Assembly (NCBI RefSeq): GCF_900167395.1
Contig: NZ_FUWK01000003.1
Coordinates: 90,001-122,000 of the forward strand
Length of the DNA: 32,000 nt
Source of the DNA: Nitrosomonas europaea
GTDB lineage: Bacteria > Pseudomonadota > Gammaproteobacteria > Burkholderiales > Nitrosomonadaceae
Direction: 5' to 3'
The notes under the pieces are model-generated. The model saw only the letters and a list, made by a program, of their open reading frames with translations, searched no databases and had not been told where the DNA came from. Both the position numbers and the translations under genes were made by a program. Shown in pieces: positions 22,511-27,202 of the stretch; within the stretch, counting starts at the first letter, position 1, and every line of letters begins with the position of its first letter.

Positions 22511-23335
22511 TTACGGAGTTGTTACGACATCGTCCAGAATGGCTCTGTCCTGCTTGTTCCATTCCACGTCAACCAGATTGGAATAACGTGTTATGAGCTG
22601 TATGGCAAGACCACCCTGGAACAGGGCAGCCCAGGCCAGGATAACGAAGCCCCAGTGCAGTGGCGCGCTGAAGAGTTCTTCCATGAACCAGAAGGCATGC
22701 CCCCACTCATTCAGACCAACGTTGGGCAGACTCATCAGCGGGCCGGCCACTACCATGATCAGCGGGAACGACCACCCCTTGTTATACAGCGGTAACCGGG
22801 TTTTGGCGTAAATGATCATCGCTATACCCATGATGATGTATACCGGGAATGAGCCATAGAACAGAGGAATATGGCTGGGTGTAAAACTGGTATCCCGGAT
22901 AATCACCTGGTGCCATGAGGCGTCTTGCTCGGTAAAGAAGCTTGATCCCCAGTAAACGGCAAATATATAGACTCCAAGCCACATCATGAAATAAAAATAC
23001 CGCTTTATTTCCTGTTTGGGAGTCAGGCTGGCAAGCTGTTCTGCCGTATTCCGGGTTTTCAACAGCCATCCCCAGATGGAGAATGCTGCCAAGGCAATAA
23101 CGACCATCTGAACACGCCACAGACCCATCCAGATCCGGTCAAAATCCGGCTCCATCGAATCCATGCCATGGGAATAGGCAAACGTACGCTGATACCATAC
23201 CCAGAATACCGCTATGCCCAGAATGGGCAGCAGGCCGTATTTGTAGTACTTGGCGTCAAACCATTCTGATTTGTCGTAAGCCGGTTTATCAGTGACTTGC
23301 TGTGCAGTCTTATCCTTCAATATGCTTGTAGCCAT
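22511..23335 (-). CDS. amoC: ammonia monooxygenase subunit C, orphan (amoC3-type) copy
   Basis: 274 aa from the ATG at 23335 (MATSILKDK), with a GGAG RBS just upstream. Long identical blocks to Nitrosomonas AmoC: [96 protein letters not shown]. No amoA or amoB lies adjacent. Confidence 0.97.
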
Positions 23336-23567
23336 AAATGACGCTCCTTCTTGCAGCAATCGGAATTTCCGGAGAAATTCCTGAATTAGAAAAAAGTAAG
23401 TTACCAGTCGGGCTTCAAAGTGAAATCCGATTTAGGACAATTCCGGGTTGCTGAGAAAATTGCGGTTAATCGAATCAGTCTCATGCAACTGCCGGATTCA
23501 GACGCTTTCATGGCGGATATCTCCTCTGTTTGGATGAATAAAAAACCTGTTTTTTTACAGGCACTTA

Positions 23568-23594
23568 TGTGAGTCCTTAAATCCGATAAAGTTC
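23568..23594 (-). promoter_or_regulatory. ECF sigma-E-like promoter motif upstream of amoC
   Basis: The minus strand reads TGAACTT-tatcggatttaaggac-TCACA. The -35 GAACTT is at 23594-23589, the spacer is 16 nt, and the -10 TCACA is at 23572-23568. Compare the enterobacterial sigma-E consensus GGAACTT-N16-TCAAA. This is a motif match by eye only. Confidence 0.4.
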
Positions 23595-23866
23595 AATGTC
23601 GAAGTGGATGGCCTATCCCAAGTCAATTACACTGAAAAGCAAGGGCGTATTCCTGGCTCAGAACTGCTTCTGTAGTAGTGTCGGTACGTACTGGCAAAAG
23701 TGTGTAACAAAATAATGGGTCATCGCTTCCACAGCAAAGGTGTTGCGATCATGAAATCCGGCCGGCTGTATCAGGTTTTCCTCATTCAGTTTTCGTTCAG
23801 ACAGAGTGGCGTAAATTGACGCCATCAGGAATGGGCCTGATGAGCACAACACCGAGGAGAAATGAC

Positions 23867-24211
23867 ATGACCACTCAAACAAAAACAAGAAATCTGACCG
23901 GCCTGATATTAACCGGCTTATTAACAGCCAGCCTCACCATGTCCTCTATAGCGCATGCAGACAGAGGTCATCGCCATCATCGTCACCATGATCATCACCG
24001 CCACCATCACCATGATCGTCATGACCACCATCGTCATTCCGGCGGGCATGTGCATATCTACAACCAGGCACCTGCCTATTACCGGCAGAACTACCCGCAG
24101 CCGCAGCAGTACGGCTACTATCCTCCGATCCCAGCCCCGGTGTACGTCGTTCCCCCGCAAATGATGATGGGGATCAATACCGGAAGGGTGGATTTTATGT
24201 TACGGTTCTGA
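23867..24211 (+). CDS. small secreted histidine-rich protein (hypothetical; candidate periplasmic metal-binding protein)
   Basis: 114 aa from the ATG at 23867, with GAGGAG at 23854-23859. Signal peptide with an AHA cleavage-type site. The mature N-terminus DRGHRHHRHHDHHRHHHHDRHDHHRHSGGHVH has 17 His in 32 residues. It is followed by a Pro/Tyr/Gln-rich tail. The stop codon lies 6 nt before a 19-bp perfect hairpin. Confidence 0.7.
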   Translation: MTTQTKTRNLTGLILTGLLTASLTMSSIAHADRGHRHHRHHDHHRHHHHDRHDHHRHSGGHVHIYNQAPAYYRQNYPQPQQYGYYPPIPAPVYVVPPQMMMGINTGRVDFMLRF

Positions 24212-24217
24212 TGTCAC

Positions 24218-24275
24218 AAGCGGGTATGGGGATGAACCGGAAATTCATCCCCATACCCGCTTGATTTCAATTTTC
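24218..24275 (+). terminator. strong rho-independent terminator of the His-rich protein gene
   Basis: Perfect 19-bp stem AAGCGGGTATGGGGATGAA (24218-24236) / TTCATCCCCATACCCGCTT (24244-24262) with a 7-nt loop, followed by GATTTCAATTTTC. Confidence 0.85.
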
Positions 24276-24293
24276 AGTGTGTAAGGATGTGGT

Positions 24294-24587
24294 GTGATGA
24301 GCAGATGGCAGCAAGCTTTACTGATTATGTCGATCATGGTTGCTGCGATGCCGGACACTTCAGCCCGCCGGCATGATGCGGCCAGTGGACATGACAGAGC
24401 AGGCAAGCCGGCTGGTGGTATTTCGGAACAGCGTGCGATCGCAATCGCGCAACAGCATTTCTCGGGGCGCGTACTGGCAATCAGTCAGACCGATCGCGTC
24501 TACCGCATCAAGATTCTCAGTGATCAGGGTACCGTCCACACGATTCTGATCGACGCACTGAATGGTGCCGTCGTATCAGCCCGTTGA
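24294..24587 (+). CDS. secreted PepSY domain protein
   Basis: 97 aa. Signal-like N-terminus, then a single PepSY-like module (ISEQRAIAIAQQHFSGRVLAISQTDRVYRIKILSDQGTVHTILIDALNGAVV). The start is the GTG at 24294 or the ATG at 24297. Confidence 0.75.
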   Translation: MMSRWQQALLIMSIMVAAMPDTSARRHDAASGHDRAGKPAGGISEQRAIAIAQQHFSGRVLAISQTDRVYRIKILSDQGTVHTILIDALNGAVVSAR

Positions 24588-24628
24588 TCTCAAAAATAAA
24601 TTTCATGATTCAATCCGGTACGTTTACG

Positions 24629-24698
24629 TAATAAATGAGCATTCTGAGCCGACTTTTAACGCAGAAATGGCAATGCAGATAGTTTTGCAGAGGTTCCT
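24629..24698. repeat. truncated second copy (right-hand half) of the MITE-like element at 21982-22122
   Basis: A hand alignment of 24629-24698 against 22053-22123 gives about 65 identical positions out of 71, with one 1-nt indel. Both are in the same orientation. Similarity stops right after the terminal GGTTCCT in both copies. The left terminal repeat is absent here. Confidence 0.75.
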
Positions 24699-24729
24699 CA
24701 GTCATTACCGTATGCTGCAGGAAAGTTAA

Positions 24730-25419
24730 ATGCGCATCCTGGTCATCGAAGATGAATTTCGTCTGCAAAATCAGATCCGCCGGCAGTTGGAGGCAGCGGG
24801 TTATATGGTCGATACCAGCAGCAGTGGCGATGAAGGGTTGTTTCTCGCCACGGAATACCGGCCCGATGCTGCCATCATCGATATTGGCCTGCCCGGTAAA
24901 TCCGGCCTGGAAATCATCAAGGCACTGCGGGAACGCGGCAGCCTGCTGCCTATCCTGATTCTGACTGCGCGCAGCAGCTGGCAGGACAAGGTGCAGGGAC
25001 TGGAAATGGGCGCGGATGATTACCTGACCAAGCCGTTTCAGATGGAAGAGCTGCAGGCCAGAGTCCGGGCATTATTGCGCCGTGCTGTCGGTATACCGCA
25101 AACCTTGCTGAAGTGTGGCCCCATCGCGGTGGATGTCACAGCACAATCGGTCAGTGTCGATGGTGCGAACATCGAACTGACATCGTTTGAATATCGCCTG
25201 CTGGAAGAACTGGTGTGCCACCGTGGCGAGATACTTTCCAAGGAGTCACTTGCTGATGCCCTGTATCCGCACAATGAGGATCGTGACAGCAACGTGCTCG
25301 AAGTCATGATCGGTAGGTTGCGGCGCAAACTCGACCCGGAGGGTACATTGAAGCCGATCGAAACCATGCGCGGGCGCGGCTATCGTTTTACGCTGGAATG
25401 TAACAGCAAATCGCCATGA
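24730..25419 (+). CDS. OmpR/PhoB-family response regulator, PhoP-like
   Basis: Receiver domain (MRILVIEDE...DAAIIDIGLPG...) with ILILTARSSWQDKVQGLEMGADDYLTKPF closely paralleling E. coli PhoP ([29 protein letters not shown]). Winged-helix C-terminus (GRGYRF). Confidence 0.88.
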   Translation: MRILVIEDEFRLQNQIRRQLEAAGYMVDTSSSGDEGLFLATEYRPDAAIIDIGLPGKSGLEIIKALRERGSLLPILILTARSSWQDKVQGLEMGADDYLTKPFQMEELQARVRALLRRAVGIPQTLLKCGPIAVDVTAQSVSVDGANIELTSFEYRLLEELVCHRGEILSKESLADALYPHNEDRDSNVLEVMIGRLRRKLDPEGTLKPIETMRGRGYRFTLECNSKSP

Positions 25420-26756
25420 TGTCGCTCAACAAGCGCGTCTTGCTCAGTGCTGCTCTGGTATTACTGGTTTTCATCGCCGGAATTACCCTGACATTGGATC
25501 GCGCCTTCTATGACAGTGCGCGTATCGGTGTGAAGGATCGGCTGTTTGCAAGGCTGCTGATGCTGCTGGGTGATACCGAAGTGGATGAATCCGGTGAACT
25601 GGAGATTCCCACCAACCTGCTGGATGCGGAATTCGGTCATGTCAACTCGGATATCTATGCTTTCGTGACCGGCCCTGCCAATACCATCGTCTGGCGCTCC
25701 ACTTCGTCGCTGAATAAACCGATTCCCGGTATCACGCTGCTGGAAAAGGGTAAACAGGAATTCGAGCAAATCACGCTCGATGAAGAGCCCTACTTCATCT
25801 ACCGCTACAGCGTTGCCTGGGAAACATCTTCTGGCAACTATCCACTGATTTTCAACGTGATGACCGATACCGCGCTGCTGGAAGCGCAGATCGAACGTTA
25901 TCGCGAAGATTTGTGGGGCTGGCTGGGTCTGATGGCCGTTTTCCTGCTGGCTACGCAAATGCTGGTATTGCGCTGGGGGTTGCTGCCATTACGCACGGTT
26001 TCAACGGAGCTTGCCGCGATCGAATCCGGCCGGCAGGAAAGTCTGAAAGACCGCTATCCCAAAGAGCTCAAGCTGCTGACCGACAGTATCAATTCCCTGA
26101 TTACCCACGAACATAAACAGCAGAAACGCTATCGTAACGGTCTGGCTGATCTGGCGCACAGCCTGAAAACGCCGCTTGCCGTATTGCAGGGCGCGATTCA
26201 TGGCGGAAACGACGAAGCTGCCCGGCTCAAAACGATTCAAGAGCAGATCGACCGTATGGATAACACCATCCAGTATCAATTGCGCCGTGCTGCAACTGCC
26301 GGCAGTTCACCGGGTATGAGGTTGATCCCGTTACGTTCGATGGCGGACAGGATCATCAATACCATCACCAGAGTCTACCGTGACAAACGGCCGCATATTA
26401 CGGTGAAGATCGATGACAGTATGAATTTGCGCATCGATGAAGGTGATTTGATGGAGCTGCTTGGCAACCTGATCGACAATGCATTCAAATGGTGTCACCA
26501 CAGCATTCATTTATCTGCCGGTTATCAGGAGGATCAAGTGGTGATTCAAGTCAGGGACGATGGCCCAGGTATTTCGCCCCACGAAATCGCCCGTATCCTG
26601 GAACGTGGTGTACGGGCCGATCAATCCATCCCTGGCCACGGTATCGGTCTGGCCATCGTACGTGACATCATGCAGGTCTATGGAGGTGAGCTGTTGATCA
26701 GCAACAATCCTGACGGTGGTCTGAGTGTGACTTTGCGCTTTGAGAAAAGCAAATGA
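25416..26756 (+). CDS. sensor histidine kinase, PhoQ-like
   Basis: ATGA overlap with the regulator gene. Two TM segments flank a periplasmic domain of roughly 140 aa, followed by a HAMP domain. The H-box LADLAHSLKTPLAVLQ is nearly identical to E. coli PhoQ LTDLTHSLKTPLAVLQ. N box (NLIDNAFKW) and G boxes (DDGPGI, GHGIGLA) are present. Confidence 0.88.
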   Translation: MMSLNKRVLLSAALVLLVFIAGITLTLDRAFYDSARIGVKDRLFARLLMLLGDTEVDESGELEIPTNLLDAEFGHVNSDIYAFVTGPANTIVWRSTSSLNKPIPGITLLEKGKQEFEQITLDEEPYFIYRYSVAWETSSGNYPLIFNVMTDTALLEAQIERYREDLWGWLGLMAVFLLATQMLVLRWGLLPLRTVSTELAAIESGRQESLKDRYPKELKLLTDSINSLITHEHKQQKRYRNGLADLAHSLKTPLAVLQGAIHGGNDEAARLKTIQEQIDRMDNTIQYQLRRAATAGSSPGMRLIPLRSMADRIINTITRVYRDKRPHITVKIDDSMNLRIDEGDLMELLGNLIDNAFKWCHHSIHLSAGYQEDQVVIQVRDDGPGISPHEIARILERGVRADQSIPGHGIGLAIVRDIMQVYGGELLISNNPDGGLSVTLRFEKSK

Positions 26757-26874: not shown

Positions 26875-27117
26875 TTACCTTTTCTTCAGATAAAACAGGA
26901 ATTCACCGGTAGTTTCGGATGAGGACAGTAGTTCATGTCCGGTCTGGTCGGCGAATACCTGAAAATCGATCACTGCACCCGGGTCGGTTGCCATGATTTT
27001 GAGCACCTGTCCCCGTGTCATTTCAGACAGGGATTTTTTCGTTCGCAGGATGGGCAGTGGACAAATAAGCCCGCGCACATCCAGTTCCCTGTCAAAAAAT
27101 TCATTATTCGGATTCAT
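26875..27117 (-). CDS. TusA/SirA-family sulfurtransferase-like protein
   Basis: 80 aa from the ATG at 27117, with a GAGG RBS. Conserved Cys-Pro-x-Pro motif (LDVRGLICPLPILRTKK) and ATDPGAVIDF, comparable with E. coli TusA (LGLRCPEPVMMVRK ... ADDPATTRDI). Confidence 0.85.
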   Translation of the reverse strand: MNPNNEFFDRELDVRGLICPLPILRTKKSLSEMTRGQVLKIMATDPGAVIDFQVFADQTGHELLSSSETTGEFLFYLKKR

Positions 27118-27202
27118 ACTGTTATTACCTCGAATTACCTGATCAGCAAATGGGTGGATTCTATCTGTTTGTAATATCTGCTGACAGTCTGTCAAATCAG
27201 TT

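Follow-up and report, generated by a model that had tools for sequence, protein, structure and literature searches.

The His-rich gene and its surroundings

The DNA analysed here is a stretch of 32,000 nucleotides (nt) from Nitrosomonas europaea, called the window below, in which positions are counted from the first letter. On its plus strand lies a gene for a small, secreted, histidine-rich protein, which is followed by genes for a PepSY-domain protein, a response regulator and a sensor histidine kinase, and which diverges from a copy of amoC. The observations collected below are best explained if the His-rich gene is the first cistron of an envelope-signalling module of four genes, kept throughout Nitrosomonas, and at the same time its direct transcriptional target, a reading that we hold with moderate confidence. 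The product of the gene is probably a cation- or proton-binding accessory protein. The features of the locus are collected in Table 1.

Table 1. Predicted promoter elements, coding sequences and hairpins of the His-rich gene and the genes that follow it, with positions in the window
Feature	Position	Strand	Remarks
Direct-repeat response-regulator box ATTCAG-TTTTC-GTTCAG, 11-bp periodicity, PhoP-box-like	23784-23800	+	Predicted; same position 5' of every family member
-10-like hexamer TAAATT	23812-23817	+	11 nt 3' of the box; putative promoter element
Short stem-loop CAUCAGG-N6-CCUGAUG at the predicted mRNA 5' end	23821-23845	+	May act in mRNA stability or as a binding site
Ribosome-binding site GAGGAG	23854-23859	+	7 nt 5' of the ATG; AAGGAG or GAGGAG kept in all loci
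Coding sequence of the 114-residue His-rich secreted protein	23867-24211	+	Homologues, translation; mature form 83 residues, 10.1 kDa, pI 9.8, no Cys
Sec-type signal peptide, 31 residues, A-H-A before the predicted cleavage site	23867-23959	+	Cleavage predicted
His-rich tract, 17 His, 6 Arg and 4 Asp in 32 residues	23960-24055	+	Hypervariable in length and sequence
Tyr/Pro/Gln-rich low-complexity segment (IYNQ..YY..YPQPQQY..YYPP..APVYVV)	24056-24151	+	Y65, Y71, Y84, Y85, A90, Y93 invariant (alignment A1)
C-terminal motif PPQMMMGINTGRVDFMLRF-COOH, best-conserved part	24152-24208	+	P96, P97, G102, F110, M111, R113 invariant
Hairpin, perfect 20-bp stem, 7-nt loop, weak U-tract	24217-24263	+	5 nt after the stop codon; -39.4 kcal/mol, z = -7.9 against shuffled sequences
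Small secreted PepSY-domain protein, DbfQ-like	24297-24587	+	Pfam PepSY E = 5e-8; N-terminal signal sequence
OmpR/PhoB-family response regulator	24730-25419	+	Pfam Response_reg and Trans_reg_C; best NCBIfam model PhoP, 226 bits
PhoQ-like sensor histidine kinase, periplasmic domain of about 140 residues with acidic cluster GDTEVDESGELE	25416-26756	+	Best NCBIfam model PhoQ, 201 bits

The elements of the gene and its protein listed in a preliminary description of this DNA are all present: the ribosome-binding site, a signal peptide ending in AHA, the mature N-terminus DRGHRHHRHHDHHRHHHHDRHDHHRHSGGHVH, in which 17 of the 32 residues are His, a Tyr/Pro/Gln-rich segment and the end FMLRF. The basic n-region, the hydrophobic core and the AxA motif of the signal peptide are kept in all aligned homologues. 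The His tract contains neither Met nor Cys, and the DNA that encodes it has an imperfect periodicity of 6-24 nt. In the C-terminal motif the hydrophobic residues alternate and the terminal residue is aromatic. A simple pKa calculation gives the mature protein a net charge of about +4 at pH 7.5 and about +17 at pH 5.5. AlphaFold2, run with an alignment of 30 sequences, predicts the helix of the signal peptide alone; the rest of the chain is low-confidence coil with a mean predicted local distance difference test score (pLDDT) of 55, and the mature protein is predicted to be disordered. From its composition, binding of metal by the His tract is chemically plausible.

Conservation of the family, its gene order and its predicted promoter

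A word-indexed search with the window protein found 29 homologues, and a profile search of 1.84 billion cluster representatives gave 121 matches at E <= 1e-3. The complete C-terminal motif, G[IVL]x[TAS]Gxxx[FL][MV][ILF]x[FY], forms the end of 49 of the 148 retrieved proteins, and all the invariant positions given in Table 1 lie outside the His tract. A profile made from the non-His C-terminal half still recovers 43 proteins at a library-scaled E <= 1e-3, and the family is thus not an artefact of composition. The 45 distinct homologues all belong to Nitrosomonas or to unnamed metagenome-assembled genomes. Their loci were gathered by look-ups of the exact proteins; by a scan of one genome per species, which gave 27 loci, again all from Nitrosomonas or unnamed metagenome-assembled genomes and including N. 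eutropha, N. mobilis, N. oligotropha and N. supralitoralis; by a metagenome scan with a more divergent 'FMLRY' subgroup, which gave 19 loci; and by starting in reverse from the kinase in N. ureae and a JL21-like contig.

As the preliminary description had it, the protein belongs to no named family: its scores stay below the cut-offs of all Pfam and NCBIfam models. The sub-threshold matches to Pfam and NCBIfam models (ZrgA, Metal_resist, DmeF, RcnA, ZnuA, HypB and VPA0510) all fall on the His stretch, and these echoes are of the His loops of Ni/Co/Zn proteins in the case of ZrgA, DmeF, RcnA, ZnuA and HypB. The match of the window protein to ZrgA (PF10986) reaches 13.2 bits, where the cut-off is 27.4, and covers the His stretch only (residues 23-63). 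Weak matches to this model occur in 24 of 30 family members, the best with E = 1.5e-5, and the resemblance is judged to be compositional. Metal_resist (PF13801; the ZraP/CpxP/Spy family with its LTXXQ motif) is matched below threshold by 13 of 30 members, with a best E of 0.049, and AlphaFold2 places helices only in the signal peptide. For the VPA0510 family (NF052668), matched by seven of 28 members, the score is 23.3 bits (E = 7e-5) against a curated cut-off of 95 bits.

The profile also draws in a much wider set of small secreted proteins (P0058-P0148), in which a charged His/Trp/Arg-rich stretch and (YYAPPP)n repeats are combined with a brief hydrophobic end, for example SFGLNLVFPLR, at the C-terminus. 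In the one genomic context of this set that was looked at (L037, Planctomycete-like), neither the box nor a two-component system is present. The set may represent a larger undescribed architectural class, or it may share composition only.

Across the loci, identities are 72-97% for the regulator and the kinase, 45-96% for the PepSY protein and 43-70% for the His-rich protein. In a comparison of the window with L003, its nearest relative, identity amounts to 95-97% for the genes around the His-rich gene and to 70% for the His-rich protein itself. Substitutions and in-frame insertions or deletions of 6, 6 and 3 nt set the signal peptides and the tracts apart, and the last 50 or so codons of the gene are almost unchanged. 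The suspicion voiced at the outset that the repetitive tract could vary in length between strains is thus borne out for close relatives, in which length and sequence both differ. In the family as a whole the tract is 14-60 residues long, of which 3-21 (median 13) are His and almost none Glu; in divergent homologues it includes Lys/Arg-rich blocks. The variable tract and the unchanged C-terminus together suggest that the former provides a bulk physico-chemical property and the latter a specific contact.

Some deposited gene models of the family need correction. Neut_1364 of N. eutropha C91 (L001, 6001-6474) is annotated as a 'transmembrane protein' of 157 residues whose start lies too far upstream; by the alignment, the ribosome-binding site and the position of the box, the true start is MNVKTKK, giving 117 residues. 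Several metagenome gene calls carry the same N-terminal over-extension.

The gene order downstream of the His-rich gene is constant. On the same strand, the PepSY gene follows in 41 of 41 loci, the OmpR/PhoP-type regulator in 37 of 37 and the PhoQ-like kinase in 32 of 32, where the denominators are the distinct loci, among the 45 family genes, with enough downstream sequence. The linkage also holds in the opposite direction: upstream of the kinase of N. ureae, and of that in the JL21-like contig, lies a family member with its box and hairpin. For the PepSY gene of the window, the ATG at 24297 suits the AAGGA site better than the GTG at 24294 given in the list of open reading frames.

Judged by profile scores, the regulator and the kinase form a PhoPQ-like pair and not an equivalog of PhoPQ. 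Both miss the NCBIfam equivalog cut-offs, the regulator that of PhoP (PRK10816; 226 against 336 bits) and the kinase that of PhoQ (PRK10815; 201 against 497 bits). Orthologues of the kinase carry the Pfam domain PF26769 HAMP_PhoQ, the JGI name for them is PhoQ, and the top matches of the kinase in the PDB are the PhoQ catalytic domains 3cgy and 1id0; a PDB sequence search with the regulator gave generic OmpR-family matches only. The sensor domain of the kinase (25491-25925) is highly conserved across the genus, with the invariant acidic cluster MGD[AT]EVE[ED]SGEL[DE], and has no sequence-detectable relative in the PDB. The matches listed by the kinase homologue search all come from Nitrosomonas and are at least 68% identical.

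Directly after the kinase gene, and convergent with it, a half-size GDT1/UPF0016 gene (90 residues) is found in many loci of Nitrosomonas (L002, L005, L007, L040, L062 and L063). The GDT1/UPF0016 family includes Ca2+/Mn2+ transporters, and this neighbour may hint at the cation that the system handles. In the window, a TusA gene (26875-27195) takes its place.

Alignment of the 130 nt upstream of each start codon revealed a conserved promoter block. It consists, in this order, of the direct repeat [C/T]ATTCAG-N5-[G/A]TTCA[G/T]; 11-12 nt further on, the hexamer TA[A/G/C]ATT; the sequence CCATCAGGAA..CCTGA; and AAGGAG or GAGGAG. The direct-repeat box lies 70-85 nt upstream of the family genes, where a -35 element would sit. 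A scan of positions 23000-25000 for sigma-70 consensus sequences found no complete promoter on the plus strand and no -35 consensus at the box. This is what an activator-dependent promoter would look like in which a bound regulator at the box stands in for the -35 element. The 11-bp periodicity of the box is typical of OmpR/PhoB-family sites. The box of the window differs at the first base only from the PhoP consensus of Pseudomonas aeruginosa, GTTCAGNNNNNRTTCAG (PMC3156716).

The box is almost exclusive to the family. In 389 kb of loci, counting both strands, NTTCAG-N5-RTTCAN occurs 43 times; 42 of these matches are the site in question, one per family gene, and a single match lies elsewhere. 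The copy given in Table 1 is the only exact one in the 32 kb of the window. The box also precedes the family genes on three short contigs where no PepSY gene is adjacent (L036, L038 and L039), of which the contigs of L038 and L039 are too short to judge whether the module follows; L037, compositionally similar and in a Planctomycete context, has neither box nor module. The sequence of the stem-loop behind the -10 hexamer, CCATCAGGAA...CCTGA, is kept in nearly all loci; its folding gives -13.4 kcal/mol (z = -1.8) in the window and is weak in other loci. Regulatory coupling of the His-rich gene to the two-component system is highly likely, presumably through binding of the regulator to the box.

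A second conserved direct repeat, ATTCATNGCGTATTCAA, is found on the minus strand about 1.43 kb upstream of the His-rich gene in the seven metagenome loci L047, L048, L049, L051, L052, L054 and L061. It may be a further site for the same regulator, or just conserved coding sequence.

In almost all loci a long hairpin stands right after the stop codon of the His-rich gene. Its stem sequences differ by lineage, and in a MAFFT/RNAalifold alignment both bases have changed in a compensatory manner in five of the seven consensus pairs; one such pair is G-C in 11 sequences and U-A in nine. The preliminary description had placed a perfect 19-bp terminator 6 nt after the gene and concluded that the gene is an independent unit. 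The stem is indeed perfect, but it is 20 bp long and begins 5 nt after the stop codon. The U-tract behind it is weak in the window (AUUUCAAUUUUC) and absent or U-poor in several lineages, so that the hairpin does not imply an independent unit; moreover, the constant partners of the gene are the three downstream genes, and the only regulator box of each locus lies 5' of the His-rich gene. The gap between the His-rich and PepSY genes is about 85 nt, with about 35 nt from the hairpin to the PepSY start, and before the PepSY gene no second box was found in the loci and no plus-strand sigma-70 consensus promoter in the window. The simplest reading of the short gap and of the single box is one operon, inside which the hairpin serves as a leaky terminator or as a 3' stabiliser. 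Such an arrangement would yield the first product in large excess over the signalling proteins and, in addition, would allow autoregulation via one promoter.

The proposed signalling module and its relatives

On this basis a sequence of events in the module may be proposed. The phosphorylated regulator would bind to the ATTCAG-N5-GTTCAG repeat that replaces the -35 element and would switch transcription on. The strong ribosome-binding site and the stem-loops at both ends of the first cistron would lead to a high output of the His-rich protein. Some of the transcripts would read through the hairpin with its weak U-tract, and the PepSY protein, the regulator and the kinase would then be expressed, hence the autoregulation. 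The His-rich product would be exported by Sec and would remain disordered in the periplasm, where its His/Arg/Asp tract would bind divalent metal ions and/or protons. Cation binding by the protein is likely. The invariant C-terminal motif might then tether the protein to a conserved partner, for which the PepSY protein and the acidic sensor domain of the kinase are the likeliest candidates. In this manner the cation or pH status of the periplasm might act back on the kinase, by a feedback like those of ZraP and CpxP on their own kinases, a last step that we propose only tentatively.

A bolder version of this feedback, which we consider unlikely, makes the His-rich protein a periplasmic co-sensor: a self-made, disordered polycation, gated by pH and metals, that acts via its C-terminal motif on the PepSY protein or on the acidic patch of the kinase. 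When ammonia oxidation lowers the pH of the periplasm, the tract, near-neutral at first, would acquire a strong positive charge; alternatively, it would take up metal ions. The protein would then act much as the cationic peptides of a host activate PhoQ. As a variant, the stimulus might cause self-assembly through the Tyr/Arg/Gln-rich segment. If true, a co-sensor of this kind would be a built-in feedback for acid and metal stress in Nitrosomonas, and the three-part module of the DbfQRS type would become a four-part one.

The proposed module has relatives among known systems. In DbfQRS of Vibrio cholerae and in BqsP/BqsQ-BqsRS of P. aeruginosa, as in the window, a small secreted PepSY gene lies directly 5' of genes for an OmpR-family regulator and a kinase with a periplasmic sensor. 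The window shows the arrangement by which the DbfQRS class is recognised, namely a small secreted protein with a single PepSY domain encoded within a few genes of a histidine kinase and a response regulator, here directly 5' of both. DbfQ, the small secreted PepSY protein of V. cholerae, binds the sensor domain of DbfS and biases this kinase towards phosphatase activity; dbfQRS is positively autoregulated, and the class is widespread and includes BqsRS with its two upstream PepSY genes (PMC12714742). By analogy, the PepSY protein of the window may bind the sensor domain of the neighbouring kinase. The BqsRS cluster resembles the Nitrosomonas module further in that one more gene for a small secreted protein, PA2659, stands at the next position upstream. 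The extra Nitrosomonas gene differs from the genes of both systems in that it encodes not a second PepSY protein but an unrelated His-rich protein, predicted to be disordered, with a hairpin of its own; the box is PhoP-like.

OprH of P. aeruginosa is an outer-membrane beta-barrel. The oprH-phoP-phoQ operon and the window share a basic envelope protein as first product (abundant in the case of OprH), a box of the form GTTCAG-N5-RTTCAG (PMC3156716), a regulator and a kinase downstream, and autoregulation via the first promoter, which in the window would follow from the one-operon arrangement. The differences are that the window protein has 83 residues and is predicted to be disordered, that a PepSY gene is interposed, and that the regulator and the kinase score below the equivalog cut-offs.

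The nearest functional analogues of the His-rich protein would be ZraP, CpxP, SilE and PcoE, none of which is homologous to it. ZraP and CpxP are small periplasmic proteins induced by the adjacent two-component system, and ZraP binds metal and exerts negative feedback on its kinase. The proteins of ZraP-ZraSR and CpxP-CpxAR are helical and folded, and their genes diverge from those of the system, whereas the window protein is predicted to be disordered, is the product of a first cistron and has no LTXXQ/Metal_resist domain. SilE and PcoE are secreted, disordered, His-rich metal binders that adjoin and are controlled by a metal-sensing two-component system. They bind Ag or Cu through His/Met motifs and lack the Tyr/Pro/Gln segment and the FMLRF end, whereas the window protein has a His/Arg/Asp tract without Met; there is no sequence relationship.

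N. europaea has another His-rich protein of similar size, SmbP, which is periplasmic, has a mass of about 10 kDa and binds several divalent metals. It is a helical heptad-repeat protein that is not known to have a Tyr/Pro-rich segment or a C-terminus of the FMLRF type, and we know of no link between SmbP and a two-component system. The His-rich protein represents an undescribed family, and the four-gene module is a new variant of the systems that combine a PepSY protein with a two-component pair.

Modules of this kind have only recently been shown to act via a secreted kinase-binding protein, and their natural cues are still unknown (PMC12714742). The chemistry of the extra first gene's product (poly-His with a pKa near 6 and affinity for metals) points to cues that can be tested, pH and divalent metals. 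Both are stresses of central importance to ammonia oxidisers, whose activity lowers the pH around them and which rely on Cu and Fe enzymes. The conserved box could readily be used as a reporter and as a means of delimiting the regulon, in organisms of which few regulators have been characterised.

Several observations weigh against the proposed module. The family gene of L036 clearly lies apart from it, and physical linkage is thus not obligatory. The PhoP and PhoQ scores below the equivalog cut-offs make the transfer of the Pseudomonas PhoP box an argument by analogy. The Lys/Arg-rich blocks of the divergent homologues suit a polycation better than metal coordination. The PepSY gene may have a promoter of its own, hidden within the His-rich coding sequence. 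Literature searches on Neut_1364-1367, on VPA0510, on His-rich periplasmic proteins of Nitrosomonas and on the combination of a His-rich protein with PhoQ or with PepSY found nothing relevant, and the empty result for Neut_1364-1367 counts in the same direction.

Rejected identities and alternative functions

Several identities of the His-rich protein were considered and rejected. An outer-membrane beta-barrel like OprH does not agree with a mature chain of 83 residues in which AlphaFold2 predicts no strands (mean pLDDT 55) and only the last seven residues resemble a beta-signal. A sorting signal of the PEP-CTERM type gives no NCBIfam/TIGRFAM match, and no C-terminal hydrophobic run is long enough for a transmembrane helix. 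A leader peptide of the his-operon type is excluded by the length of 114 residues, the secretion signal and the lack of his genes nearby, and a lipoprotein by the lack of Cys. A bacteriocin precursor was rejected on account of the Sec signal and a weak YxzE match only, and a sulphur-globule protein on account of a Tyr/Gly match that is weak and compositional. The first His occupies position 4 of the mature chain and not position 3, as an amino-terminal Cu- and Ni-binding (ATCUN) site would need. The protein is no homologue of SilE or PcoE, as it matches none of their Pfam or NCBIfam models and its tract is without Met.

Among other functions, the one that survives best is that of a bulk metal sponge in the periplasm, similar to SilE and PcoE and without a role in signalling, which we nevertheless consider rather unlikely. 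The module would induce the protein under metal stress or scarcity, the protein would buffer Zn, Ni, Co, Cu or Fe(II), and the C-terminal motif would serve folding, oligomerisation or turnover. Seventeen His in 32 residues with Asp interspersed would suit a sponge well. Its sole database echoes are the His loops of Ni/Co/Zn proteins, the layout of the gene suits high expression, the length of the tract is free to vary as that of a capacity function would be, and disorder, predicted here, is generally known from SilE and PcoE. However, an invariant C-terminus of 19 residues and a near-obligatory adjacency to sensor genes are more than a sponge needs, the Lys/Arg blocks of divergent members do not coordinate metals, and the tract lacks Met and Cys ligands.

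The same Lys/Arg blocks favour another function, an envelope-stabilising polycation comparable to OprH. Where divalent cations are scarce, or at low pH, the tract would replace Mg2+/Ca2+ on the head groups of lipopolysaccharide or phospholipid, and the C-terminus would hold the protein at the outer membrane in the way of the beta-signal of outer-membrane proteins. The operon logic and the type of box are those of oprH-phoPQ, the pI is 9.8 and the calculated charge rises to +17 at pH 5.5, the kinase is PhoQ-like with an acidic cluster, and the end V-D-F-M-L-R-F has alternating hydrophobic residues and an aromatic terminus. Yet a mature chain of 83 residues that is predicted to be disordered would form no barrel on its own, the two putative strands of about seven residues each are too short to span a membrane, and the outer-membrane location is hypothetical. 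Such a function is improbable.

The amoC gene upstream suggested a third function. It is encoded on the minus strand (Pfam AmoC, E = 3e-135) with its start at 23335, 531 bp from the ATG of the His-rich gene. There is no amoA or amoB in the 32-kb window, the rest of which holds housekeeping genes, and this amoC is thus an isolated, amoC3-style copy in the sense of PMC13058606. Upstream of it on the minus strand (23545-23600) lies a sigma-E-like pair, GAACTT-N16-TCACA, at about 23594-23568. Directly behind this pair comes a hairpin with a T-run (23562-23545) that resembles a terminator, some 210 nt short of the amoC start. Pair and hairpin may serve the isolated amoC as a stress promoter and its leader or attenuator.

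The preliminary description suggested that the His-rich protein may be a partner of the stress-type amoC, one that supplies or sequesters metal, here taken as Cu, during repair of ammonia monooxygenase (AMO), and that the two genes share a 531-bp control region, through which they would be controlled together. The gene does adjoin the isolated amoC of the window and diverges from it, copies of amoC3 that stand alone are induced by stress (PMC13058606), AMO is a copper enzyme and the binding of Cu(II) by poly-His is established chemistry. A survey of the other loci speaks against the partnership. Among about 40 loci with enough upstream sequence, amoC adjoins the family gene only in the window, in L003/L004 and in L009, and thus within the sub-lineage of the window; elsewhere the upstream neighbour changes and is DUF924, MdoG/H, a BBP2 porin-like gene or HGSNAT_cat. 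The intergenic distance of 531 bp was given correctly, but the region is not a shared control region: the promoter block of the His-rich gene is private, at 70-85 nt from the ATG and some 450 bp away from amoC, and amoC is preceded on the opposite strand by a sigma-E-like -35/-10 pair of its own. Throughout its occurrence the His-rich gene accompanies the two-component system. The partnership is thus largely refuted by synteny and is very improbable, and the comparison of loci corrects a tempting guilt-by-association link to amoC3.

That the frame is a chance opening over CAY-rich low-complexity DNA and not a gene at all can be dismissed: several frames on both strands are open across the tract (two of the three plus-strand frames and not all three, as had been stated, the third having three TGA stops), but at least 45 homologues share this frame with its signal peptide, ribosome-binding site and invariant C-terminus, the invariant residues lie in the non-His C-terminal half, and the insertions and deletions are in frame.

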